From Candidatus Zambryskiibacteriota bacterium (lineage in GTDB: Bacteria > Patescibacteriota > Minisyncoccia > Phycocordibacterales > WO2-35-19), in assembly GCA_048499675.1 (NCBI GenBank), contig JASNZL010000007.1:2401-66400 (forward strand): a DNA stretch of 64,000 nt, written 5' to 3'. Positions 9,381 through 63,908 of this stretch are shown piece after piece. The notes beneath the pieces are model-generated. The model saw only the letters and a list, made by a program, of their open reading frames with translations, was not told the DNA's origin and did not search any database. The stretch's first letter is position 1; every line of letters begins with the position of its first letter. The translations under genes were made by a program, and so were the position numbers.

Positions 9381-10322
9381 TTAGTTGATTGTGCCGAGCT
9401 TCTCGGCAAAGGCGTGGTTGCCCGACCACTTCGGATCAACCATCTTGCGCCCGCATTCCTCTTCTTCGGAAGAGGGCGGGAAGATTTCGCACCCCTTCTC
9501 GATCACCCAATCGGGGGCGTTTTTCGCCTCAAGGGCCTCGAGGAGGTTTTCGACGAGCTTTTCGGTGTGCTCGTCAAGACCGTCGCCACGAGCGGTATCG
9601 TCGAGCGCGATTACCGCGTCGAGAACCTGACCCGCCTTGACGCAGAGCCAAGCGGGCAAACGCTCGTCTTTGTTCTCAGCAACCTGAGCGGTCGTCGCAA
9701 CGACCACCCCATCCTGCCCGAAGAGAAACTTCTCGAGCTCCTCGGTCGGAGCCTTCAAGAATACCTCTTTCGGGTTTGCCTCGTTGTGGAGGATGTAAAA
9801 TCCATTCCCCCACGCCTTAGCGACCGCCGGAAGGAAAACCTCCCAGAAGTCATTCCCGAGGAGATACTTCCCCTGGAAGACCCTCGTGACCAACTGGGTC
9901 GTTTTGGCGGGGTGAATATTTTTCCCCCCCAAGAAACCCCCAAGGAAGTTTTTCAACTTCCTGACGGGATCGTCGAGCTCGCGAGCGGAGCTCGTTTCGC
10001 TTGCGACCGGCTTTTTGGGAGCCGGAGTCGGAAGCGGAACCTGCGGGATGGCCGTAACCGGTTTCCGCGTCTCCTGCTCCATTTCGACCACTTCGAGCGG
10101 AGAGATCTCCGCCCTGATTGTCGCGGGCTTCGGGCGGAGGGCTTTCTCCAGCCCGAGCCAGAATTCGGGGTCCCCCCCGACAATCTGACGAATGGCGTCC
10201 GCCCTCGCCTCGGCGGGGGCGCCGAGGTTGTCCAAAGTTTGAATCGCCCCACGCATTTCCGCGAGACGCTTTTGAATGATTTGCTTCAGGCTTTTCATCG
10301 CCTTTTTTCTCCTTTTTTTCAA
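9381..10322 (-). CDS. Hypothetical protein encoded by a compositionally foreign (~58% GC) CDS
   Basis: 313 aa starting MKKRRKK… It has an AGGAG ribosome-binding site, its own consensus promoter and its own terminator. GC content is roughly double that of every neighbour. The overlapping ORFs on both strands are Arg-rich artefacts typical of high-GC DNA. Confidence 0.6.
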   Translation of the reverse strand: MKKRRKKAMKSLKQIIQKRLAEMRGAIQTLDNLGAPAEARADAIRQIVGGDPEFWLGLEKALRPKPATIRAEISPLEVVEMEQETRKPVTAIPQVPLPTPAPKKPVASETSSARELDDPVRKLKNFLGGFLGGKNIHPAKTTQLVTRVFQGKYLLGNDFWEVFLPAVAKAWGNGFYILHNEANPKEVFLKAPTEELEKFLFGQDGVVVATTAQVAENKDERLPAWLCVKAGQVLDAVIALDDTARGDGLDEHTEKLVENLLEALEAKNAPDWVIEKGCEIFPPSSEEEECGRKMVDPKWSGNHAFAEKLGTIN

Positions 10323-21638: not shown

Positions 21639-22467
21639 CTGTCGTATTGCCCCAATTACTTGAGGGGTCGGACTATATCTTCACCCTTATTTTATATAAA
21701 ATAAGGGGTTCGGCGTATTAGCATGAAGTCTAGCTTCACACTCCAACCACTTAAGGTTAAGTCTCTACGGGGTCATAACCCAATTTATATTTCATGGACG
21801 GAATAATATTATTTTCTATAATTCCAAATAATTTCGAAATACTAGATGTCTTAAATCTAATTCTGTAATACTCTTTATCTTTATTTAGAGTCCCCTCTAA
21901 ACCAAATTCTTTTAGAGACCGCAATAATTTCTCTTGGTCACTTTTTGAAAATTGTTGAGTATTCAGATACACATTATTTTTTCCACATCTACTTCCGTCA
22001 TCCATAAACCATACTGCCAATATTATTGGATCTAATTTTAGATCAGGAATACATTTTTTCTTATTCCTATAAAACAAATCCATCATTTTGGTAAATTCAG
22101 GATGTTGTTTGGTAAAGAATCTATATGCAATCCGCGCACCATTTCCTTTTCGAGATTTTGGTCCACTTCTTGATAAATTTTTTAAGATTGAGAATTTCCA
22201 TTCAACATACTCTTTTTGAGTTATTGAATGATTAACTTCCAAAAATGCATTTTTTCTTCCTTTTACTCGACGAATATATCCGTCTCCTAAAAGAGTTCCG
22301 ATAATAAATGACTTCTGTAATTGAGTTAGACTTCCCTCGGTATTGTCCATATTACTAATTATATCATTTGATATAACGCCTGTTTATGGAGTCCACCGAT
22401 ATAAGCCAAATTTTTTTATATGAGATTACTCTCATAGGCACCCCGATGTGTTGTAACAACAAGTTAA
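21639..22467 (-). mobile_element. Group I-like intron in 23S domain V (after …GGCACC; E. coli ~2449 site) encoding a LAGLIDADG homing endonuclease
   Basis: The exon resumes at CGATGTCGGCTCATC. The insert contains a 594-nt ORF. Confidence 0.65.
21757..22350 (-). CDS. LAGLIDADG homing endonuclease (two-motif type)
   Basis: LLGDGYI and WFMDDGS motifs; located inside the 23S intron. Confidence 0.8.
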   Translation of the reverse strand: MDNTEGSLTQLQKSFIIGTLLGDGYIRRVKGRKNAFLEVNHSITQKEYVEWKFSILKNLSRSGPKSRKGNGARIAYRFFTKQHPEFTKMMDLFYRNKKKCIPDLKLDPIILAVWFMDDGSRCGKNNVYLNTQQFSKSDQEKLLRSLKEFGLEGTLNKDKEYYRIRFKTSSISKLFGIIENNIIPSMKYKLGYDPVET

Positions 22468-23017
22468 GGTGCCGAACTCCGCCGTCGCTCTGGACGCTTA
22501 GGCGGAACCAGCCTGTTATCCCCGGAGTAGCTTTTGTCCGATAATCTTTTGCCGCGTCTAACGCGAACAATCGGTTCACTTAGCTCTGCTTTCGCATCTG
22601 CTCCTCATGTACGAGTTGCAGTTAAGCCAGCTTGTGCCTATACACTATCGCCATGGTTTCCATTCACGGCTAGCTGACCTTAATAGGCTCCTCCGTTACT
22701 CTTTGGGAGGATAGCGCCCCACTAAAACTGCCCACCAGACACTGTTTCTTTACGTTTTTGCCGTAGAGATTAGAAAATATATCAATACAGAGTGGTATTT
22801 CACTGACGACTCCATGCTCCCCAAAAGGAACACTTCAAAGTCTCCCACCTATGCTACGCAGTAAAAACATATCCTCAATGCCAAGTTGCAGTAAAGCTTC
22901 CGGGGTCTTTTCGTCTAACTGCAGGTAACCGGCATCTTCACCGGTATTGTATTTTCACCGAGCGAGTCCCCGAGACAGTTCCCCAGTCGTTACACCATTC
23001 GTGCGCGTCTGAACTTC

Positions 23018-23373
23018 ATGTCTCGTTTTTTGTTTGCGTTATCAATCGCAAACTTACGATTTCTCTTATTTCTAAGAGCATAGACTATATCTTCATCTTA
23101 AGAGAACCTATAAATTTTATCTTAAGAGTCGGCGTGTTATAACAATGTTTTCTCAAATTTAATTGAGGCATTTGCTATCCGTTCATTTCTGAACAAGTCG
23201 TTACGGGTTCACGATTTGTCCAAATTAATATTTGGTCACAAATCGCAATTCCCACGGTATTATCTTTCCTTCAACATTCTTATCCTTGAATAAGAACTCC
23301 AGTTAAGACTTCACCGTTATTAGCCGAATTTTTTCATCGAGATTACTCTCGAAGCTGGCAATTCAATTACCAG
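23018..23373 (-). mobile_element. ORF-less intron-like insertion in 23S domain IV (after GGTAGCGAAATTCCTTGTC; E. coli ~1931 site)
   Basis: The exon resumes at AAGTTCAGACGCGCACGAATGG. The insert is ~356 nt. Confidence 0.5.
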
Positions 23374-23399
23374 ACAAGGAATTTCGCTACCTTAGGACG

Positions 23400-24148
23400 A
23401 TTCATTTCTTTTTATTACTCAGTTAGTAGCTACTGAGAGCCTCATTGTCGCCAATGAGATCGGACTATATCTTCCCAAAATGATTTCTCGCTTTAGGTCT
23501 AGCGTATAGTCTCTGAGGATTTTCTGATAAGGAATTTTTATAATCTTTTAAATTATACTTCCTTGTTCTTCCTTTTCCTTCGTTCAATTTCTCTCGAAGT
23601 TCTACAACCTTTAACATTCCGTCATTACTTAAATGTTCTTTTTTGAAAACCATTTTTGCAATTTGGGAGAAGATTGAGAAATTTTTCTTCTTATTTGAAG
23701 AAAGAAAAGAATATTTTTCAAAGAAAGGTATTATCCTTTCTTCAATAGCGACAGGATTCTCTACTACGTAGTAGCAAACCCCGTCTTTTCGTTCTTGCAA
23801 TCTTCCACATCCTAAATGATGTTTCATTAACGCAAGAACAGTTTTGTCGCGTTGAGCAACATTTAAAGTCAGTACCACTTGCCATCCAAGAGAATGATCT
23901 TCTCTTTTTCTTAGTGAGACATTGAAGCTTCCTTCTCCGTCCACAAAGCCAGCAATATAGTTTCCTATATTTTGAGGAATTGACTTAAGCCACGAAATAT
24001 CTTTCATTTTTAATTCGTTGCTTATCAGAATCTTTCCTGCGGATTGTCTGCACCGCTACATTTTTACTGCCATTTCGATTTATGACGAGTAGTAGACGGA
24101 TACTCAGAGTTTCCCGCATTTAGCTAGATTTTATAACTACAATTATCC
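23400..24148 (-). mobile_element. Intron-like insertion in the 23S (after GGCGATAACTATAA; E. coli ~1917 region) encoding a LAGLIDADG endonuclease
   Basis: The exon resumes at CGTCCTAAGGTAGCG. The insert contains a 543-nt ORF. Confidence 0.55.
23465..24007 (-). CDS. LAGLIDADG homing endonuclease (single-motif type)
   Basis: YIAGFVDGEGSF motif; located inside the 23S insertion. Confidence 0.75.
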   Translation of the reverse strand: MKDISWLKSIPQNIGNYIAGFVDGEGSFNVSLRKREDHSLGWQVVLTLNVAQRDKTVLALMKHHLGCGRLQERKDGVCYYVVENPVAIEERIIPFFEKYSFLSSNKKKNFSIFSQIAKMVFKKEHLSNDGMLKVVELREKLNEGKGRTRKYNLKDYKNSLSENPQRLYARPKARNHFGKI

Positions 24149-24389
24149 TTATAGTTATCGCCGACATTCACCAGGGCTTACAACAGTCAGCATACATCAT
24201 GCTGAGTACGAGAATTTTCAATTTGAAAATTCATACGCAGTATGATGTACACCGCCATTGTTTAACCTTCTGGCATTGGTCAGGTGTCACCCCCTATACA
24301 TCCTCTTACGAGTTCGCAGGGAGCTGTGTTTTTGATAAACAGTCGCCAGGGATTCTTTAGCTGCGGCCCAACCGCACCTCGCTACGCTC

Positions 24390-24520
24390 GGGCGGAATTC
24401 TCAATTTTTAATTTTTAATTTTCATTCAATTTTCAATGTATTAATTTCAAGTTTTTAACATTGTAAATTAGAAATTATTTGAAAATTTTAAATTGTAAAT
24501 TTTAAATTCCGTGCCGAATG
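24390..24520 (-). repeat. AT-rich intervening sequence (IVS) in the 23S, family member with similar termini
   Basis: Flanked by CCTCGCTACGCTCGGGCGG and CCGTGCCGAATGCAATGAGGCACGG, with an interior of AATTTTCAATTTT-type repeats. Confidence 0.6.
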
Positions 24521-25089
24521 CAATGAGGCACGGTCGGGCAGGCCTTATACCGAAGGTACGGCCGCTTTTTTGCCGAGTTCCTTGGGGACCTCTCACTCGT
24601 TCGCCTTGGTCTTCTCGACCTGACTACCTGTGTCGGTTTACGGTACGGTCTATTTATGCTTAACCTTAGAAGATTTTCTTGGAAGCGTGCTTTACAAACT
24701 CTTATCTGCCGAGGCTTCAAATTGTCATACTGCTTGAGGTGCAATTAAATGCAGTCTTGCGGATTTACCTACAAGACACCCTTACAGCACAAACGCAAAT
24801 CCAATAATGCGCTTTGTATACTACACTCCGTCTCTCCATCGAACATAAACAGGTGCAGGAATATTAACCTGCTGTCCATCGGGTCCGACTTTCGTCATAC
24901 CCTTAGGCCCGACTAACCCTTCCCTGATTGTCATCGGAAAGGAAACCTTAGTCTTTCGGCGCGCGCAGTTTTCATGCGCGTTGTGGTTACTTGTGCCAAC
25001 ATTCTTACTTCGTAACGCTCCAGCATGGGTCACCCCTTTGCCTTCACAGCGGATACGAATACTCTCCTACCGCGCCAGCCACACTACGC

Positions 25090-25250
25090 TACGCTCCGTG
25101 CGCTGGAATTTTCAATTTAAAATTTTCAATTTTCAATCAATTTTCAATGTCTTAATTTTGAAATTTAGAAATTAAGAATTTAATCATTGTTTAGAAATTA
25201 GAAATTAAAAATTAGAAATTCCGCACGAAATGCAATGTAGTGCGGCCGAC
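25090..25250 (-). repeat. AT-rich IVS in the 23S, family member
   Basis: Flanked by CACTACGCTACGCTCCGTGCGCTGG and CCGCACGAAATGCAATGTAGTGCGG. Confidence 0.6.
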
Positions 25251-25318
25251 ACCCTCAGTTTCGGTACATAGCTTAGCCCCGATTATCTTCGGCGCAGAAT
25301 CTCTGAATGAGTGAGCTG

Positions 25319-25361
<43 letters not shown>

Positions 25362-25940
25362 CATTGTCGGAGAAATTTCACCACCTTAAGTGCACTTAGC
25401 TATGATTTAGGGACCTTAAATTGAGATCATGGGCTGTTTCCCTTTTGACGAACGGAGCTTAGCCCCCGCCGTCTAACTGCCACGCTTTCACCCACACACT
25501 AAGTTTTCGATAGTTTTCAACGCGCTTTGCGCAATCAAAAACTTAGTGTGCGGGTTAACTATTGGTATTCGGAGTTTGATAGGTCTAGCGAGATTTCTCC
25601 CTGTCCAGACCTTCCAGTGCTCTACCCCCAATAGGAACGCGTGACGCGAACCCAAAAGCTCTTTCGGAGAGAACCAGCTATTACCAGGTTCGATTAGCTT
25701 TTCACTCCTTACCACAGGTCATCCGAAGGAATCGCACGACCAACCGGTTCGGGCCTCCATCTCGCTTTCGCGAGACTTCACCCTGCCCATGGCAAGCTCA
25801 CCTGGCTTCGGGTCTAATGTATACGACATAAAATTTCGCGCTATTCACGCTCGCTTTCACTATGCCTAACGCGGGTCGACCGCTTCGGCTGCCACATACA
25901 TTAACTCGTTGGCTCATTCTTCAATAGGCACGCCATGACC

Positions 25941-26111
25941 GTCACACCTCGCTACACTCGGTGACGGAATTTTCAATTTAAAATTTAAAATTTAAAAATA
26001 ATTTTCAATATCCCAATTCTCAATTAAGAAAATGGAAATTTAATCATTATTTAGAAATTAGAAATTAAAAATTAGAAATTCCGTTGCAACGAATGCACTG
26101 AGGTGCAACGG
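25941..26111 (-). repeat. AT-rich IVS in the 23S, family member
   Basis: Flanked by GTCACACCTCGCTACACTCGGTGAC and CCGTTGCAACGAATGCACTGAGGTGCAACGG. Confidence 0.6.
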
Positions 26112-26166
26112 CTCTGACTCCTTGTAAGCATATGGTTTCAGGTCTATTTCACCGCCCTCACCGGGC

Positions 26167-26208
<42 letters not shown>

Positions 26209-26646
26209 TAGAAATATATTTAGCCTTACCGGTTAGTTCCGGCAGATTCCCCCGAGCTATTCGTGTCTCGAGGTACTCAAGAACAACAGCAAAAAAGATT
26301 ATTTGTTTTCGACTACGGGGCTATTACCCTCTGGGGCGCTTCTTTCCAGAAGCTTCTTCTAACAAATAATTTTGTAACTTTTCTCGTATAAATACGACGC
26401 TATCGTCTTACAACCCCCGCACACTCACTTTGTCATCGTTGCATTGTGTTTTTATAAAATTTCATTGCACATCCGATTAGCTACCGAATCTTAAATTTCG
26501 TTTACTATCAAAGATGCAACAAAACACAATGACAAAGTGAGTGTGCGGGTTTGGGCTTCTCCGCTTTCGCTCGCCGCTACTCACGGAATACTTTTTAGTT
26601 TCTTTTCCTCCTGGTACTGAAATGTTTTACTTCCCAGGGTAAGCTC

Positions 26647-26805
26647 CGTGCCTCACTACCGCTCGTCACAAAATTTTCAATTTTTAATTTTGTAATTTTC
26701 ATTGAATGTTCCAATTTTAGAATTTTCAAATTGAGACATTGAAAATTTATTGGAAACTGAAAATTGATACTTGAAAATTAGTGCTGAACGAAAGTGAAGC
26801 ACGGT
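26647..26805 (-). repeat. AT-rich IVS in the 23S 5' domain, family member
   Basis: Flanked by CCGTGCCTCACTACCGCTCGTCAC and GTGCTGAACGAAAGTGAAGCACGG. Confidence 0.55.
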
Positions 26806-27523
26806 CCTCGCAAAGCGAGGGGGTTTCCCCATTCGGAAATTTCCGGATCAAAGGTTGCTAGGCACCTCCCCGAAACTTATCGCAGCCACGCCACGTCCTT
26901 CATCGCTATTTCTAGCCAAGGCATCCACCATATGCTCTTAAATTTCCTATTAGGAAATTCAAAAACCACTTGTCCGATCATTTTAATTTAAAATGATTTA
27001 GGACTTAATTATCCTGTCTTACAAGACTACAATCATCCTGCAAGACCTTTGTCTCCATATGCCGAGCTTTTTTCTCCAGCATACAGAAACTACAATATCC
27101 TGATACAAAAAATATATCAGGAAGTCCACTTCCAACAAACAAAGACCCCTTCGACTCGCTACGCTCGCTCAGGGTAAACCCTCAGCAAAAAGAAGCTCAT
27201 CAAAAAGCGATGTTGTAGTGGAATGTACCCAGTAGTAGATTTTGGCATTGAGCAAGCTCACACATACGCAAGCGTATGTTATGCCAAAATTCACTACTGG
27301 GTTTATTTGTCAAAATACAATCGTTCCGAATTTTGTCTTCTCTACCCTGTTCTTAATTTTAGCAAGCTAAAATTAAGAACAGGATTTTGAATCATTATCT
27401 TACTCAAAAAAGAACAAAAAAATCCACTTCTCTCGAAGCGGGCTCAAACCAAGCCAAAGGGTTTTTTCTACCCTCTTTTTCGCTTCGTAGTTAAAAATCT
27501 CAATAACATAATTTGTGCTATCT

Positions 27524-38014: not shown

Positions 38015-39922
38015 TTAAGGGAAGCTTACGTCGTTAGTTCTCCAGTCAACTTCGCCAGCCATAAATGATGATGACTGTCCGTTGTTCCAGTGAACTGCTT
38101 CTAGACCAACTGAGTATAGACCGCTGTCTACGCCCGAACCATCCGCTGTTCTTCCAGGAACCTGGAATGTAACTGGGATAGTAATTTCGCTACCCTCTGC
38201 CAATGTACAGCTGTTTGTTCCGAATGTTGTACATGTTGAAGGAATAGTGAATGAAGTTGAAGTAGCAAGGTTCTCTGAACTTACTTGACCATTGTAGTAA
38301 AGCTTGAAGCTTGTTGAAGGACCGAATACTGGAGTTGCTGAAGCAACTGAACCTAGTAGTAGGTCACCGCCAACTGCTTTAACTTTTACATTGAATGTAG
38401 CAGTAAGAGTTGATGTACTTACAGGTGAACCGTTTGTTTGTGCAACACCTGAAGTTGAAATACTCTTTGATACCAAAGATACTTCAGCTCCAACATTTCT
38501 TACACCGATTGTGTAACCTTGTGCAGAACCTGTAGGAGTTACAGTGTCACCTTGTGAGTTTTCAGCAACTATGTCAGCTGCGTCGACATCTAGAGTAATA
38601 TTTCTGATTGTACCATTTGCATCTCTAACGTCAGCCTTAACTGTAAATGTTTTTGTTGAATCTTTTGCAACAGTAACATCTATGTCAGAGAATGTAGCAC
38701 CTACACCATTTGATGCTGAGTTGTCGATTTCTGTAGAACCATCAAATAGGTAAAGTGTTGTAACAGTAGCCAATCCTGAATCAGAGTAAACAATGTCTAC
38801 AGTAAGATCTGTGATCATAACTGCATCTTTCTCAGCTTTAACATCGAAAGTTAGCATTGATACTTTGTCCAATTCATCATCTGTTGAACCATCAGCAGCA
38901 ACTACATCCATTTTCTTTGGAGATGCATTGTTTAGAGATAGTTTCAAAGCAGCTGAATCAGAAAGACTCTTTTGAACTGAAACTGATCTTGTGATTGAGT
39001 TTGAACCAGCGTATTGGTCAATACCAGCACCATCAACACCTCTCACACCATTAGTGTCAAGCATTAATGTGTAGCTACCGATATCGCTTGTATCAACTGT
39101 GTTTCTTACATCAGCTTTGACAACGATAGTCCTTGAAGAATCCTTTGGAACAACTAGGTTGAAACCTGTGATTGTTACATAGTATCTTCCACCATCTTTA
39201 ACAACTGTTGAAGAATTTAGGTCAACTGAAGCAAGAGTGTTTCCCCCTTCAGTAACATACAATCTTGAATAAATTTTATTAAAGATTGTTGTAGCTGTAC
39301 CTAGATCCAATTTGATTCTTTGAATAGCAATGTCTGACTGTTTAGCATCCACTTTCATTCCTAAAACAGAAGCCATTGAATCTCCTTCGTATACAGTTGA
39401 AGCAATGCCTGCGCTTGATGAAGTAACAGCAAGTGTTCCTTCAACACCAGGAGTAGTGATACCAGCTCCAGGAGTTGTTGGGGTTGTTCCAGGTACTGTT
39501 GGAGTTGTTCCAGCCATTGCATTTACTTTAGCTCTAGTGATAGGGCCAAAGTATCCAACTGCAGGACTAATTCCTGCTTCTGCTTGGTATTTAGCCAAAG
39601 CAGATTGTGTCAAGGGACCAAAGTATCCATAAGCAACGCCTGCTGGCATTACCAAGTATCCTTTAGATACCAACCACTGTTGTAGAGCAGTAACCTCTGC
39701 ACCTGTTGAACCTATTGTAAGGTCGCTAGTAAACATCATTCCTGCACCTGTTGTTGGAGTTGTTCCAGCAATCTGTGCTTGAAGTTGAGCGATCATAGCA
39801 AGCAAGCTATTGATCTGAGCTGTAAGTTCAGCTGTTGTTTGAGCAGAAGCTGGAATAGCTACTGTACTCAAAACCATAGCAGCACCTAAAACTCCCGCGA
39901 AAAGTTTTGATTTTAATTTCAT
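38015..39922 (-). CDS. Secreted Thr/Ser/Gly-rich protein with an N-terminal peptidoglycan-binding domain (PGBD1) and Ig-like repeats
   Basis: Signal peptide; …GSTGAEVTALQQWLVSKGYL… and …GYFGPITRAKV (PG_binding_1 signature). Elevated GC (~45%) from the amino-acid bias. Confidence 0.55.
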   Translation of the reverse strand: MKLKSKLFAGVLGAAMVLSTVAIPASAQTTAELTAQINSLLAMIAQLQAQIAGTTPTTGAGMMFTSDLTIGSTGAEVTALQQWLVSKGYLVMPAGVAYGYFGPLTQSALAKYQAEAGISPAVGYFGPITRAKVNAMAGTTPTVPGTTPTTPGAGITTPGVEGTLAVTSSSAGIASTVYEGDSMASVLGMKVDAKQSDIAIQRIKLDLGTATTIFNKIYSRLYVTEGGNTLASVDLNSSTVVKDGGRYYVTITGFNLVVPKDSSRTIVVKADVRNTVDTSDIGSYTLMLDTNGVRGVDGAGIDQYAGSNSITRSVSVQKSLSDSAALKLSLNNASPKKMDVVAADGSTDDELDKVSMLTFDVKAEKDAVMITDLTVDIVYSDSGLATVTTLYLFDGSTEIDNSASNGVGATFSDIDVTVAKDSTKTFTVKADVRDANGTIRNITLDVDAADIVAENSQGDTVTPTGSAQGYTIGVRNVGAEVSLVSKSISTSGVAQTNGSPVSTSTLTATFNVKVKAVGGDLLLGSVASATPVFGPSTSFKLYYNGQVSSENLATSTSFTIPSTCTTFGTNSCTLAEGSEITIPVTFQVPGRTADGSGVDSGLYSVGLEAVHWNNGQSSSFMAGEVDWRTNDVSFP

Positions 39923-60060: not shown

Positions 60061-60453
60061 CTATCTGATAAAATTTCTCAATTTTTCTCTCATTTTTACA
60101 AAAATATCTGGAGCGATTTCATATAATTTTCTTTTCAATCTTTTTACACTCACAAGCTTCATTTGAGCCAAAATAACAGAAACTTTTTGATTATTTGGGT
60201 CTGTAAAATTGAAGTAAAAATCAAATTTCTTTTGTTTAGTAGAAAGTGGAACACACCAAAACATATGATTGTTAAATTTCTTAATAACAAGGACTGGTCT
60301 TGAAAAATTATCACCGCTTCCATTTTGCTCATACCCAATATTTTTACCAATTGAAGACATCCAAACTTCCGCTTCTTTCGGAAAATAATTAGGAGAACCA
60401 TTTTCAAACTGTATTTTCTTTTTAAGTTCGTTCCATGAGTCGTATTCGTTCAT
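60061..60453 (-). CDS. PemK/MazF-family toxin (mRNA interferase-like); no adjacent antitoxin
   Basis: …EAEVWMSSIGKNIGYEQNGSGDNFSRPVLVIKKF…CVPLSTKQ… matches the PemK/Kid pattern GEIW…G.EQ.G.RPVLIV…VPVTS. Bracketed by the ~75-bp direct repeats. Confidence 0.6.
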   Translation of the reverse strand: MNEYDSWNELKKKIQFENGSPNYFPKEAEVWMSSIGKNIGYEQNGSGDNFSRPVLVIKKFNNHMFWCVPLSTKQKKFDFYFNFTDPNNQKVSVILAQMKLVSVKRLKRKLYEIAPDIFVKMREKLRNFIR

Positions 60454-60527
60454 TCCTCAATATTAGCCGATTTCTCTCACTTTTTCAAAAGATTTTGTAT
60501 TTTGTTTTCTATCTCTTGTTTAATCGC
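60451..60527. repeat. Direct repeat copy 2 (overlaps the last 17 codons of the RT gene and supplies GAGGAA-ATG of the MazF-like gene)
   Basis: See copy 1. Confidence 0.85.
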
Positions 60528-61484
60528 AAACTGATTTCCATGTTTCAATAATCCACAATATGAAGTGAGCACATTTACATTTTCACTCTCTTTTAATGCC
60601 TTAGTTACTCTTCTTTTAGTACTTGTCCTTAAAACTCTATGATTAGGAAAATGAACCCAACCCAAAAAATCAAGTCCAGAATAAATTGTCTTTATAAACA
60701 CTTTATCCGGATGAAATTCTAGCTTTAATTTTTTTTGAAGAAAATTGGAAATTTTTGGCATAAGGTTTAACAGAATATTTTTATCACTATCAAAAATAAC
60801 AAAATCATCAGCGTATCTAATATAATATTTAATTTTTAGTTTATGTTTTACAAACTGATCAAATTTATTCATATAAACATTGACCAAAAGTTGGGAAGTT
60901 AGATTACCCAAAGGGAGACCTGTATTTGGTTTACCAATTGTATTAAAACTTTCAATTACTCTCTCCAATAACCAAACTATGTCTTTGTCTTGTATATATT
61001 CATTTAAAATATTAATCAAAATCTCGTGATTTATTGAAGCAAAAAACTTTTTTATATCGCACTTCAATATATAACATTGTTTTGTATTATTTTTTGATAC
61101 TTTTGTACCAAAAAATCTAAATCTATTTATAGCCCTATGTGTTCCTTTGTTTAATCTGCACGAATAAGAATCATATATAAAAAGTTGGTCAAAATATGGG
61201 TATAAAACTCTATGTATGGCGTGGTGCAAAAGACGATCCCTTACACTTGCCTTGTGTATGTTTCTTGGTTTTGGGTCACTTATATTAAACGCTTTGTATC
61301 CATCATGTTTGTATGTTTTGTTTTTGAGAGCATGGTGTAAATCAATAATGTTTCCTGATAAATTTAGAGCAAACTCCGCGACATCTTTTTTATCTTTTTT
61401 ACCTTTTATGAATTCCTGCCATGATTCAAAAAGATTTTTAATTGATATAATATTTTCATAATCAATTTTAATTAAATTTTTCAT
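60477..61484 (-). CDS. Diversity-generating retroelement (DGR) reverse transcriptase
   Basis: Start MKNLIKIDYENIISIKNLFESWQEFIKGKKDKKDVAEF (DGR-RT N-terminus). Motifs SVRDRLLHHA, CDIKKFFASINHEIL, the DGR hallmark GLPLGNLTSQ (SQ in place of the SP of group II RTs), and YIRYADDFVIF. No maturase or endonuclease domain. The track ORF is extended artefactually to 61535 through the 5'-UTR hairpin and G11. Confidence 0.85.
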   Translation of the reverse strand: MKNLIKIDYENIISIKNLFESWQEFIKGKKDKKDVAEFALNLSGNIIDLHHALKNKTYKHDGYKAFNISDPKPRNIHKASVRDRLLHHAIHRVLYPYFDQLFIYDSYSCRLNKGTHRAINRFRFFGTKVSKNNTKQCYILKCDIKKFFASINHEILINILNEYIQDKDIVWLLERVIESFNTIGKPNTGLPLGNLTSQLLVNVYMNKFDQFVKHKLKIKYYIRYADDFVIFDSDKNILLNLMPKISNFLQKKLKLEFHPDKVFIKTIYSGLDFLGWVHFPNHRVLRTSTKRRVTKALKESENVNVLTSYCGLLKHGNQFAIKQEIENKIQNLLKK

Positions 61485-61869
61485 ATGAATACCAATTCTA
61501 CCCCCCCCCCGAGGATTACCACAAGTAATCCTCAAAGAAAAAGAAACGTATATTCTTTGGCAAAGATTACATAAAAATTTTCCAAAAGTTGAACGATTTG
61601 GTTTAGGACAAAAGATCGAAAATTTGTTTCTTTCTATTTTGGAATTAACTTTTTCTTCCGCCTATTTATCCCTCGAACCTAAAATATTGATGCTTGGCAA
61701 GACTATATCTCGACTTGATGTCCTTAAATTTTTTATTCAGATTGCTTGGGAGAATAAACTAATTTCAACAGAACAACACATTGCACTTTCAAACAACTTA
61801 GAGGAAATTGGCCGACAACTCGGTGGTTGGAAAAAAGGTTTAAAAACAAAACTCCCACCTAAAAAATGA
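61485..61869 (+). CDS. avd: DGR accessory variability determinant (Avd-like four-helix-bundle protein); N-terminus disrupted or phase-shifted by a C11 homopolymer
   Basis: The frame beginning at TTG 61558 gives …VYSLQRLHKNFPKVERFGLGQKIENL…LISTEQHIALSNNLEEIGRQLGGWKK, matching the Avd/TIGR02436 pattern. An ATG at 61485, head-to-head with the RT start codon (CATATG), would join this frame if the C-tract were 10 or 13 nt long. Confidence 0.55.
61501..61534. promoter_or_regulatory. C11/G11 homopolymer plus a 9-bp-stem hairpin (GAGGATTAC-CACAA-GTAATCCTC) in the 5' region shared by divergent avd and RT
   Basis: Direct sequence observation. This is the only long homopolymer in the window. Confidence 0.7.
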
Positions 61870-61885
61870 TGGGAGAAATGACTAG

Positions 61886-62005
61886 TTTCGGGACGACAAT
61901 CCGATGACGGTTGTCGCCATTCCACACATTGTCGTTCGAGAAGTGGTTGACGTTAGCGTTCGGCTTACCATCACTGTTCAGATTCACGTTAGCAACGAAG
62001 AATTT
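61886..62005 (-). repeat. DGR template repeat (TR)
   Basis: ~120 nt matching the VR at 62317-62436 with 20 mismatches. Every mismatch is at a position that is A in the TR (minus strand). The TR reading frame is rich in AAC/AAT codons (…NVNLNSDGKPNANVNHFSNDNVWNGDNRHRIVV). Confidence 0.85.
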
Positions 62006-62240
62006 GTGCAATAAATCTTCCATTACACCACTTATCAAATCATGATGAGTTGAATATTATCCGGGACATAAAAGTCCGCCAATTTAGCGCACCAACTAAT
62101 TATTTTTTATTTATAAGAATATACCCACTCTTTTGTAAGACTTATCCGACAAAATTCTCAAACATATTTTTATACAACTATGGCACCAAAGCCATGACCA
62201 TGGCACTTTGCATATATTGCAAATTTAGTATAACAAAAAT

Positions 62241-62278
62241 CCCTCAGACCCGCCCACAATTAGGAAAGGGTCTGAGGG
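62241..62278 (-). terminator. GC-rich hairpin 24 nt downstream of the VR/target stop (DGR-type cruciform and/or terminator)
   Basis: CCCTCAGACCC-N16-GGGTCTGAGGG followed by a T-run on the minus strand. Confidence 0.55.
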
Positions 62279-62301: not shown

Positions 62302-62931
62302 CTAAGCTACGAGGGTCTGCGGGACGACAAACCGATGACGGTAGTCGCCAAGCCACACAACGTCGCCCGAGAAGTGGTTGACGCAAGCGTCCGGCCCACC
62401 AGCACCGTACAGATGCACGAAAGCAACGAAGAATTCATCGCCCACCTTGAACAAAAAGAAGGTGGCGTATCCGTCAGTGCGGAGCCACTTCTTGTGGTTT
62501 TCCACAAAAGCAACGATTTGCTCCTGGGTCAGACAAAGATCGTCCCGTTCGCGACCAAGACTGCCGAAGATAGTTTTAAAATCGCCATCCTTGACCATCT
62601 CGTAGACCTCAACGGGAGTTTCCGGCTTTGCCTCCCCTGGGACATCCAAACCCCAGTTTTTGAACTCGGAGTCAATGCCCAAAGTGAACACATCACCGGC
62701 GGAAGAGACCATCCTTTGGCCGGTCGTGGCACGGATCGCGATTCGCTTTCCGCCGGAGATGAGGCGGAGAATTGGTTCTACCTCGACCTTCACCCAGCAG
62801 GGTTCCTTGCGGAGGAACTTTTTGAACTCTGCAATCCACTTGGTCCCGTCGGGACCAGACAGCTTCTCAAAAAAATCTGTGATTGCTCCGGCCACTTCAG
62901 CCAGAGTGTTTGTGCCGAGTACGCTTGACAT
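62302..62931 (-). CDS. DGR variable (target) protein, small and cytoplasmic, with the VR in its last ~40 codons
   Basis: 209 aa with no signal peptide. The VR is at 62317-62436 (…FFVAFVHLYGAGGPDACVNHFSGDVVWLGDYRHRFVVPQTLVA). The CDS is ~53% GC, against ~30% for the RT and avd. Confidence 0.75.
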   Translation of the reverse strand: MSSVLGTNTLAEVAGAITDFFEKLSGPDGTKWIAEFKKFLRKEPCWVKVEVEPILRLISGGKRIAIRATTGQRMVSSAGDVFTLGIDSEFKNWGLDVPGEAKPETPVEVYEMVKDGDFKTIFGSLGRERDDLCLTQEQIVAFVENHKKWLRTDGYATFFLFKVGDEFFVAFVHLYGAGGPDACVNHFSGDVVWLGDYRHRFVVPQTLVA

Positions 62932-63032
62932 AGTCAGCTCCTTCTCCTATTTAAAGCATAGGTGCTATTTTGGCTCTATCTATAATATACACCTAAACAC
63001 CCCTGTTTGTCAAGGGGTAAAACATCTTTGTT

Positions 63033-63908
63033 TTAGAGCGTATTTAGAAATTTTTTTATCTCCTCAAACTCCTCTGGCAAAGCCGATTCTACTTTTATAT
63101 GAGTTCCGCTTGGTAATTCCAATTTTATAGAAACGGCATGAAGCATTAATCTTTGCTTTTTCTTATCGTAACTCGTATCTCGTAACTCGTGCTTCATGCC
63201 CCCATATACTTTATCTCCTACGACAGGGTGCCCTATTGATTTCAAATGGACTCTAATCTGATGAGTTCTGCCAGTTTTTGGTTTTACTTCTACATAAGCC
63301 CCCACTTCGCCAAGGCTACGCGGGGTAAATAACCCTTGAGCTAAAACCTTGTATCCTGTGACCGCTTCCCTCAACTCCCCTTTTGCTCCATACTCTGCTG
63401 ACCACTTTCTAAAATCAGAAGCGCTCCGCCCAATTGGTTTGTCTATCACCCCTTCCAATTTATCTTCATTAAATTTACCCCAAACTACAGCGTGATAAAT
63501 TTTCTCTACTTTTCTAGCTTGGAATTGCTCTTTGAGATATTGATGAGCTTCTTTGGTTTTTGCAACCAAAATAACTCCACTTGTATCTTTGTCCAGTCGG
63601 TGCACTATCCCCGGTCTTTTTATGACTTCACCATTTTGTAAAATTTGTTCTTCCCCAACATCCTTAAGTTCTGGGTAATTTTGAAGAATCCAATCAGTCA
63701 AAGTTTTTTCTTTGCTCCTACTATCGGAACCTGCCCCGCGATCTGCGTCAGCTGATTTTGCGGAACCTGCCCCGCGATCTGCGTCAGCTGATTTTGCGGG
63801 GCTTGCCCCGCGATCTGCGTTAGTAGATTTTGCGGGGTGAACCAAAAGCCCACAAGGTTTATCAAGAGCCAATATATATTCGTCTTCATACAATATTTTT
63901 ATTTCCAT
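63033..63908 (-). CDS. RluA-family pseudouridine synthase with an in-frame 3 x 36-bp GC-rich tandem repeat insertion
   Basis: VHRLDKDTSG catalytic motif and RTHQIRVH motif. The repeat at 63727-63834 encodes (AKSADADRGAGS)x3. Confidence 0.8.
   Translation of the reverse strand: MEIKILYEDEYILALDKPCGLLVHPAKSTNADRGASPAKSADADRGAGSAKSADADRGAGSDSRSKEKTLTDWILQNYPELKDVGEEQILQNGEVIKRPGIVHRLDKDTSGVILVAKTKEAHQYLKEQFQARKVEKIYHAVVWGKFNEDKLEGVIDKPIGRSASDFRKWSAEYGAKGELREAVTGYKVLAQGLFTPRSLGEVGAYVEVKPKTGRTHQIRVHLKSIGHPVVGDKVYGGMKHELRDTSYDKKKQRLMLHAVSIKLELPSGTHIKVESALPEEFEEIKKFLNTL

Follow-up and report, generated by a model that had tools for sequence, protein, structure and literature searches.

The minus-strand open reading frame (ORF) at positions 62302-62931 of a 64,000-nt stretch of Candidatus Zambryskiibacteriota contig JASNZL010000007.1 (this whole stretch is referred to as the window) is the target, or variable-protein, gene of a diversity-generating retroelement (DGR), and encodes a product of 209 aa. 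Our analysis makes it probable that the gene belongs to a DGR of Patescibacteria, that its excess of guanine and cytosine (GC) is a family-wide property rather than a foreign one, and that the fold of its product has no counterpart in the Protein Data Bank (PDB). Judged from its sequence, the locus is a complete DGR, with the following core parts:

62302..62931, minus strand: target gene, an ORF whose product is predicted to start with two helices, continue with a small beta region and end in an alpha/beta domain that bears the variable repeat (VR)
62984..63013, minus strand: putative sigma-70-like promoter of the target gene (TTGACA, 18 nt, TATATT), predicted by consensus match only (11/12)
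62317..62435, minus strand: VR, corresponding to codons 166-205 of 209, in which 14 of the 19 adenine-bearing codons of the template repeat (TR) are altered
61886..62004, minus strand: TR, with 33 adenines, 10 AAY codons and 49.1% GC
61489..61869, plus strand: avd, inverted relative to the target, TR and reverse transcriptase, encoding a bAvd-like accessory protein (four-helix bundle)
60477..61484, minus strand: DGR reverse transcriptase (RT), with a likely start ATG at 61484-61482

The TR, 119 nt long, duplicates the 3′ end of the target; it lies on the same strand 431 nt downstream of the VR, and all 21 mismatches between VR and TR fall at TR adenines. When all TR adenines were masked, the resulting pattern matched just the VR and TR sites in the window, at a chance expectation of 0. 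The 19 adenine-containing TR codons (10 of which are AAY) correspond to a theoretical repertoire of 10^18.4 proteins. In the established DGR mechanism, RT and Avd copy the TR RNA into cDNA and place random bases opposite adenines. The RT of the window matched RVT_1 (1.1e-24) and phrog_1423 (2.2e-104), and its translation contains both GNLTSQ (a GxxxSQ motif) and YADD (in RYADDF). The avd product matched PF22296 (1.6e-14), phrog_3206 (5e-17) and NF033474 (1.4e-15, below NCBI's curated cut-off). An earlier note on this DNA, made from the letters alone, had proposed ORF 62302-62931 as a DGR target, and this proposal is borne out by the RT and Avd matches and by the confinement of the VR-TR mismatches to TR adenines.

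A word-indexed search retrieved 280 homologues of the target, every named one of which came from Patescibacteria, and a profile search of 1.84 billion representatives yielded 2669 family representatives (clusters at 50% identity) at E≤1e-3, with 1076 at E≤1e-30. A few family proteins (P0121 and P0122) carry two or three tandem copies of a core of ~160 aa, and domain fusions in longer family members provided no functional lead. For comparisons between loci, 79 loci were fetched from species-representative genomes and joined with the window into a set of 80 sequences. Of these 80 sequences, 46 had a TR with adenine-biased mismatches at a distance of 267-417 nt downstream from the VR, and the 5′ boundary of the TR was located at the same place throughout the family. 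Mean pairwise nucleotide identity across loci was 77% for the TR, 56% for the rest of the target, 60% for the RT and 61% for avd, so that the TR is the most conserved part of the cassette. The sole other contig found to bear the target protein of the window was 100% identical. Wherever avd and RT were detected beside the target, avd was inverted and the RT lay on the target strand, and the window has avd between TR and RT on the opposite strand, as in Architecture B3 of the DGRs of Candidate Phyla Radiation (CPR) bacteria. Outside the cassette no conserved neighbour was found across loci, and no mobility gene flanks the target.

The composition of the cassette is sharply divided, and the earlier note had taken this to mean that the target and TR are foreign and the RT and avd native. 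The GC figures behind that view (high in target and TR, host-like in RT and avd) all held on recomputation: the target has 54.3% GC overall and 64.3% at third codon positions (GC3), the VR 58.6% GC and the TR 49.1%, against 28.0% GC and 21.5% GC3 for the RT, 32.1% GC for avd and 35.5% for the window. Scanned in 600-nt segments, the stretch had a mean GC of 0.355 (standard deviation 0.053), and segments over the target reached 0.525. The other ORFs of the window had GC3 values of 0.18-0.38, except in a second GC-rich island at 9.2-10.6 kb. A check of GC3 against native genes, highly expressed ones included, likewise placed the target far outside their range.

For the comparison within the family, third positions of the non-VR part of the target were set against those of long host ORFs, RT and avd at all loci. 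Target GC3 exceeded host GC3 in 71 of 77 loci (mean +0.19; Wilcoxon 4e-13), and was higher than that of the RT of the same cassette in 37/40 loci and than that of avd in 44/46. Target and RT GC3 both regressed on host GC3 with slopes of ~0.6, with the target line running 0.20 higher, and the offset between target and RT recurred in hosts with a GC3 of 0.24-0.57. The excess was equal in homologues with and without a detected TR. The GC content of the TR was ~50% irrespective of the host, and that of the VR-TR spacer was host-like (0.40 versus 0.40). Distances between loci for the target and for the RT were correlated (Mantel r 0.47, a value reached by 0 of 2000 permutations), and four-fold sites were saturated between loci in target, RT and avd (identity 0.28-0.31 versus 0.25-0.27 expected). 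A large GC contrast between target and RT was rejected as a general trait of DGRs, because the difference is small in phage BPP-1 (mtd 66%, brt 61% and avd 57% GC).

A recent acquisition of target and TR from a GC-richer donor, followed by their joining to a native RT and avd (or the reverse), is in line with the sharp contrast within this cassette (54% and 49% versus 28% and 32% GC) and with the documented horizontal transfer of DGRs, for which atypical GC has been taken as evidence (PMC5758913). Transfer of whole cassettes does occur, as indicated by L016 and L031, in which both RT and target were GC-richer than the host. For the window, however, we consider this donor scenario most improbable. 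The same offset is found in nearly all cassettes, across hosts of widely differing GC3, and the target has diverged in step with the RT. At saturated synonymous sites, a neutral foreign signature would be expected to have faded, and it should also be common to RT and avd, so that the division of the cassette into a foreign and a native half is left unsupported. Because the spacer of ~300 nt that splits the coding sequence from the TR is host-like, the GC-rich part is not a contiguous island, and with the offset being family-wide the locus does not present itself as a horizontally acquired island; the flanks of the target, too, hold neither a mobility gene nor a conserved neighbour. The share of the contrast that lies in VR and TR is explained by the conserved TR of ~50% GC. 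For the rest of the target, the combination of saturated silent sites with a family-wide offset argues that the GC excess is maintained and is not a foreign relic. We read the GC-richness of the target as a trait of its whole gene family, and not as a mark of recent foreign origin. Atypical GC in a DGR cassette is commonly taken as evidence of transfer, and since target GC appears to be a stable, gene-specific property here, that inference fails for this lineage.

As to what maintains the excess, the conserved template would fix the composition of TR and VR, non-variable positions being kept free of adenine, and the rest of the target would carry a maintained, family-wide GC3 excess of about +0.2, with C-ending codons affected most and values increasing toward the VR. 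Along the gene, the excess amounted to +0.16, +0.16, +0.20 and +0.23, and then to +0.32 in the VR. Third positions of the non-VR target contained A.19, C.33, G.25 and T.23, compared with A.28, C.19, G.20 and T.33 in the host and approximately A.05 and C.45 in the VR. At four-fold sites, the target had A.17, C.355, G.236 and T.239, and the RT A.26, C.215, G.21 and T.31. C-ending codons were the most enriched class (C/(C+T) at two-fold sites of 0.65, versus a host mean of 0.275), and the target was GC-rich in every codon class (four-fold C+G 0.60; G/(A+G) 0.68). Upstream of the VR, neither structure nor silent-site conservation was detected in the target (four-fold identity 0.31 versus 0.27 expected); an RNA or DNA element embedded in the gene was rejected, since silent-site conservation did not go beyond the expectation from composition.

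Several processes might produce such a pattern. Translational selection in a very highly expressed gene would fit the near-consensus upstream promoter, the strong Shine-Dalgarno-like GGAGAAGGAG motif that precedes the ORF and the prominence of C-ending codons. Native genes that bear this signal prefer NNC codons only at two-fold pyrimidine sites, however, and keep A/U at four-fold sites: the gene for a 635-aa secreted protein at 38015-39922 has a four-fold C+G of 0.05, and that for EF-P is similar, against 0.60 in the target. As the genes for ribosomal proteins, SSB and RecA moreover have a GC3 of just 0.21-0.26, we regard translational selection as very unlikely. A footprint of adenine mutagenesis beyond the current VR, left by template switching onto the target mRNA or by TR/VR boundaries that have moved, seems rather unlikely as well. 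It would agree with adenine being the most depleted base at four-fold sites (0.17 versus 0.26-0.28), with the climb of the excess toward the VR and with a non-VR third-position composition that is intermediate between host and VR. Yet T is depleted too (0.24 versus 0.31), although A-to-N changes should raise it, the TR begins at a constant place across the family, and the 5′ end of the gene is still +0.16 above the host. Selection on a nucleic-acid property, be it duplex stability or the avoidance of spurious AT-rich promoters, terminators or RNase sites, is conceivable but doubtful: the offset persists despite saturated silent sites and is specific to the target, being absent from RT, avd and spacer, but AT-rich targets occur with intact TR and VR in L019, L034, L041, L069 and L077, and no nucleotide positions or structure are conserved upstream of the VR.

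We weakly favour GC-biased gene conversion, together with concerted evolution among multi-copy targets that share one TR, as the cause of the excess. Some homologues lack an adjacent RT. Two of them are served, as remote targets, by a DGR that sits on a different contig of the genome concerned: the VR of L040 differs from the TR of L051 by 13 adenine mismatches and 2 others, and the VR of L033 from the TR of L020 by 14 adenine mismatches and 2 others. More than one target gene per TR, as remote or neighbouring paralogues, was found in L040/L051, L033/L020, L018, L014, L036 and L056, and the two target copies of L018 are identical across almost the whole gene. Paralogues within a locus are more alike toward their 3′ end, with identity rising to as much as 100% in the final 60-nt segments of the alignment, which pass through the VR end into the 90 nt downstream. 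The 3′-rising excess, the 3′ homogenisation of paralogues and the occurrence of multi-target genomes point to a process tied to the 3′ end of the gene and to the presence of multiple copies. A number of observations nevertheless weigh against our interpretation of the locus. GC-biased conversion, a hypothetical process in Patescibacteria, does not in its simple form predict that C is far more enriched than G at four-fold sites (0.355 versus 0.236). In addition, the very AT-rich lineages L019, L034, L041, L069 and L077 show almost no excess and have AT-rich targets with intact TR and VR, so that the bias is neither universal nor required for function. Finally, because avd is out of frame as assembled in the window (see below), it is uncertain whether this DGR is still diversifying its target. 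The GC result points to an unexplained GC-ward force on hypermutated genes.

The protein itself belongs to a family without a described domain. It had no match in Pfam, NCBIfam, PHROG or PADLOC, the FGE-sulfatase, DUF1566 and Lectin_C models included, and no Pfam domain was detected at E≤1 in 71 aligned family members. Hydropathy analysis revealed no signal peptide, lipobox, transmembrane helix or hydrophobic N-terminal segment: the peak 19-residue Kyte-Doolittle mean of 1.34 lies near residue 156, in the beta-strand core, whereas secreted and transmembrane proteins of the same window reach maxima of 2.0-3.0. An in-frame stop 5 codons upstream of the target ATG precludes any extension of the N-terminus, so that a revised start site cannot supply a cleavable signal peptide. 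The description of the product in the earlier note, as a 209-aa protein with neither secretion signal nor transmembrane helix, is upheld by these data.

An AlphaFold2 (AF2) model of the whole target, built from the family alignment, reached a predicted local distance difference test score (pLDDT) of 92.1 and a predicted TM-score (pTM) of 0.76, and a model of residues 95-209 alone a pLDDT of 89.6 and a pTM of 0.85. The C-terminal domain is predicted to run in the order of one beta element, three helices and four strands, with the VR occupying the last three strands plus a loop. On the strands, the alterations fall on every second residue (171/173/175 and 181/183; i, i+2), which suggests that, in the model, the altered residues line one face of a sheet. 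Foldseek searches of the PDB returned a best E of 0.49 with the whole model and of 0.33 with residues 95-209; in the latter case TM-scores did not exceed 0.35, and the top 50 contained no chain of the C-type lectin (CLec) or immunoglobulin (Ig) fold. Against viral models the best E was 0.32, for a C-type lectin at a probability of 0.35. A profile search of the PDB with the target returned nothing, and hhalign gave a probability of 0.4% for the family profile against Mtd. In these searches the confidently predicted fold of the target had no match among solved structures, CLec and Ig folds included. The view of the earlier note that the VR does not obviously match the canonical motif of the CLec or formylglycine-generating enzyme (FGE) type holds at the sequence level, where no Pfam match was obtained. 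With its 2669 representatives and its confident but unmatched model, the target family is a candidate for structure determination and binding studies.

With regard to function, the target can be described in general terms only, as a small diversified ligand-binding module that would be either cytoplasmic or exported by a non-classical route. The idea of the earlier note of a role in 'defence or regulation' is reportedly also raised in the abstract of Paul et al. from 2017, and is neither supported nor refuted by the present data; as to anti-phage defence, the target had no PADLOC match and no conserved neighbour outside the cassette. It is possible, if somewhat unlikely, that the protein acts as a surface or secreted adhesin that leaves the cell non-classically, by piggy-backing, via pili or upon lysis. 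CPR cells live attached to hosts, which would suit an adhesin. Most DGR targets of cellular genomes are moreover surface proteins (PMC8144416), and the family member P0242 has a lipoprotein-like N-terminus. Only one of 254 sampled family proteins, however, has a signal-like N-terminus, the other 253 having neither signal peptide nor transmembrane segment, and no secretion or pilus gene occurs as a conserved neighbour.

The spacer between VR and TR, of ~300 nt, contains a hairpin with a U-run, an extended –10 element and a structured leader, in this order, followed by the TR. Together with a hairpin beyond the TR, these non-coding elements are:

62241..62278, minus strand: GC-rich 11-bp hairpin ~40 nt 3′ of the VR, predicted from sequence and fold, with a U-run next to it at 62235-62239
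62227..62235, minus strand: extended –10 element TGnTATACT, which reads TGTTATACT in this window
62005..62220, minus strand: structured RNA leader of ~215 nt, predicted by RNAalifold, which ends exactly at the 5′ edge of the TR
Leader helix groups (six), minus strand: P1 62186-62203, P2 62120-62166, P3 62131-62154, P4 62006-62092, P5 62064-62077 and P6 62030-62050
61852..61875, minus strand: conserved terminator-like hairpin with U-run that comes straight after the TR and converges on the stop codon of avd (61867-61869)

The hairpin at 62241-62278 is present after the VR and not after the TR, and is kept with compensatory changes in 35 loci. Together with the GC-rich VR end, which resembles an initiation of mutagenic homing (IMH) site, it matches at the level of sequence and fold the arrangement expected of a DGR, and appears to correspond to the inverted repeat that follows the IMH; it could serve as a terminator of the target transcript as well. 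The extended –10 element reads TGTATAAT in most related loci, with the ATAAT columns being nearly invariant, and is presumed to be the promoter of the TR RNA. The leader was assessed in an alignment of window positions 62005-62235 with related loci L002-L078, comprising 46 loci in RNAalifold. Its pairwise identity was 63%, near the level of the coding genes, and 36 of the 42 predicted pairs showed compensatory changes. In an independent count, 94.5% of cells were paired, against 42-49% with slid partners, and 410 cells carried double changes, against 57-87 with slid partners; none of 500 shuffles reached the observed values. The leader matched no Rfam family at E≤1. Bounded by the post-VR hairpin on one side and by the terminator at 61852-61875 on the other, the TR appears to be a separate transcript.

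The following course of events can be proposed. The TR RNA, probably with its own extended –10 promoter, ~215-nt structured leader and terminator, would be copied by RT and Avd into adenine-randomised cDNA. This cDNA would in turn replace the VR, steered by the hairpin and by the GC-rich 3′ terminus of the VR upstream of it, and the replacement would recode up to 19 residues (10^18.4 possible proteins).

A further element is located where avd and RT adjoin. The ATG in front of avd (61485-61487) abuts the RT ATG on the opposite strand, and is followed by:

61501..61510, plus strand: C10 homopolymer (G10 on the RT strand), 13 nt past the ATG of avd and 16 nt upstream of that of the RT
61511-61533: 9-bp hairpin directly after the C10 tract

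As assembled, the frame of the avd ATG ends after 30 codons and the body of Avd lies in the +1 frame, which has no ATG, GTG or TTG start before 61624. A second, independent assembly has an identical C10, and four metagenome contigs with near-identical context have C10 in three cases and C11 in one. Counted over six contigs of near-identical context, C10 occurred five times and C11 a single time. Related loci carry C8-C15 at the corresponding avd site in 39 of 46 cases, and of the 47 G/C runs that reach 8 nt or more in 1.02 Mb of sequence, 39 are located at that site. Among the tract-bearing loci, the upstream ATG is in frame in 10/39 and not in 29/39, and a hairpin directly follows the tract in ~16/39, with sequences that differ between clades. 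On the RT strand, reading by eye places the tract between TTGTGG and TAGAAT hexamers, 18 nt apart, upstream of the RT, where they could be the –35 and –10 elements of an RT promoter. Considered as sequence, the tract looks like a slippage control of Avd, and slippage could operate at the level of DNA phase variation, of RNA polymerase, or of a +1 ribosomal shift on CCC-C. It may accordingly act as a slippage switch of DGR activity, tract lengths being those of assemblies, in which homopolymer errors are possible. We found no literature linking DGRs with such a homopolymer tract.

When these strands are drawn together, the locus might be pictured as a self-regulated module with a variable protein of a third scaffold type, neither CLec nor Ig, that acts inside the cell, a template RNA structured at its 5′ side, an Avd gated by the poly-C tract and a recombination-driven GC bias. 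This combined picture is speculative, and we hold it to be improbable as a whole. If true, the 5′ leader would imply that RT and Avd are recruited or primed in a manner unlike the Bordetella model, and a poly-C/G tract that gates Avd, and possibly transcription of the RT, would amount to a stochastic on/off switch or a switch to low-level hypermutation. Leader and poly-C tract offer testable handles on the priming and switching of uncultivated DGRs.

Several other features of the window were recorded. Directly downstream of the RT lies a MazF/PemK-like toxin ORF (60061-60453, minus strand; PF02452, 2.6e-8), with no obvious antitoxin ORF in the window, and it is not conserved beside the DGR in other loci. 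On the other side of the target, the ORF at 63033-63908 (minus strand) encodes an RluA/RluD-type pseudouridine synthase. Within it, three tandem in-frame GC-rich units of 36 nt at 63725-63832 (identity 100%, 100% and 83%) give the synthase a repeated 12-aa insertion (ADRGAGSAKSAD-like) close to its N-terminus. The second GC-rich island includes the ORF at 9381-10322 (minus strand), which has 57% GC and encodes a 313-aa (or 305-aa) protein without Pfam match and with only 4 homologues in 5.8 billion proteins. Its N-terminal motif is similar to that of the target, but it was rejected as a relative, as hhalign gave 6% and phmmer and tblastn found nothing. The 23S rRNA gene (22429-26953, minus strand) extends over 4.5 kb compared with a 2.9-kb model, and LAGLIDADG-type ORFs are located in or beside it at 21757-22350 and 23465-24007; a 5S rRNA gene and then a tRNA gene come after it, and no 16S rRNA was detected in the window. 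As the named homologues of the target all come from Patescibacteria and the 23S rRNA gene is interrupted by LAGLIDADG ORFs, the earlier note was right to assume a tiny-genome context.

DGRs are most abundant in CPR bacteria, and Paul et al. reportedly provided their first survey in 2017. Wu et al. 2018 found that Architecture B3, TR-(avd)-RT, accounts for 90% of CPR DGRs, and placed CPR VRs in 'unknown VR' classes, for which no fold assignment could be made (PMC5758913). According to Roux et al. 2021, CPR (clade 2) targets are typically without transmembrane segments or recognisable domains, 'as previously reported'; the genuine non-membrane-bound nature of these targets was left open, and their ligand, site of action and fold were listed as an open question (PMC8144416). 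The window cassette is alike these B3 and clade 2 DGRs in gene order, inverted avd and host group, and its target likewise lacks a transmembrane helix, signal peptide and known domain and is of the 'unknown VR' kind. No feature sets the cassette outside this group. The window DGR is a typical CPR DGR of the B3 type, and since targets and cassettes of this kind have been reported for the group at large, the missing signal peptide and the inverted avd are already known and not peculiar to the window.

Among other targets, the cytoplasmic DGR targets of multicellular bacteria (PMC10907252) share the absence of an export signal, from which the idea of intracellular recognition derives. Those putative antigen sensors, however, have signalling or effector domains of conflict systems fused to a CLec VR, whereas the 209-aa protein of the window has no such domain and no PADLOC match. 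The Ig1 and Ig2 targets of Ig-like fold (Wu et al. 2018) resemble it in having a non-CLec scaffold with variable residues on beta-strands, but the domain of the window is predicted to be alpha/beta with three helices and not an all-beta sandwich, and Foldseek returned no Ig match.

The DGR of phage BPP-1 (mtd - avd - TR - brt) and that of the window have in common an RT with GxxxSQ and YADD motifs, a protein of the bAvd family, a TR that contains AAY codons, TR/VR differences at adenines only, and an inverted repeat after the GC-rich end of the VR. In the window, unlike in BPP-1, avd is inverted and comes after the TR, and the TR has a predicted promoter and terminator of its own. The conserved RNA structure of the window lies 5′ of the TR, whereas the Sp/RT-10 element of BPP-1 lies 3′ of it (PMC5737381). 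Mtd is a tail fibre of the CLec fold, with which profile comparison of the window family found nothing in common, and the composition of the BPP-1 cassette is nearly uniform, in contrast to the divided one described here. Compared with these known systems, the family-wide GC3 offset, the unmatched AF2 model, the structured 5′ leader and the poly-C tract in avd may be new.

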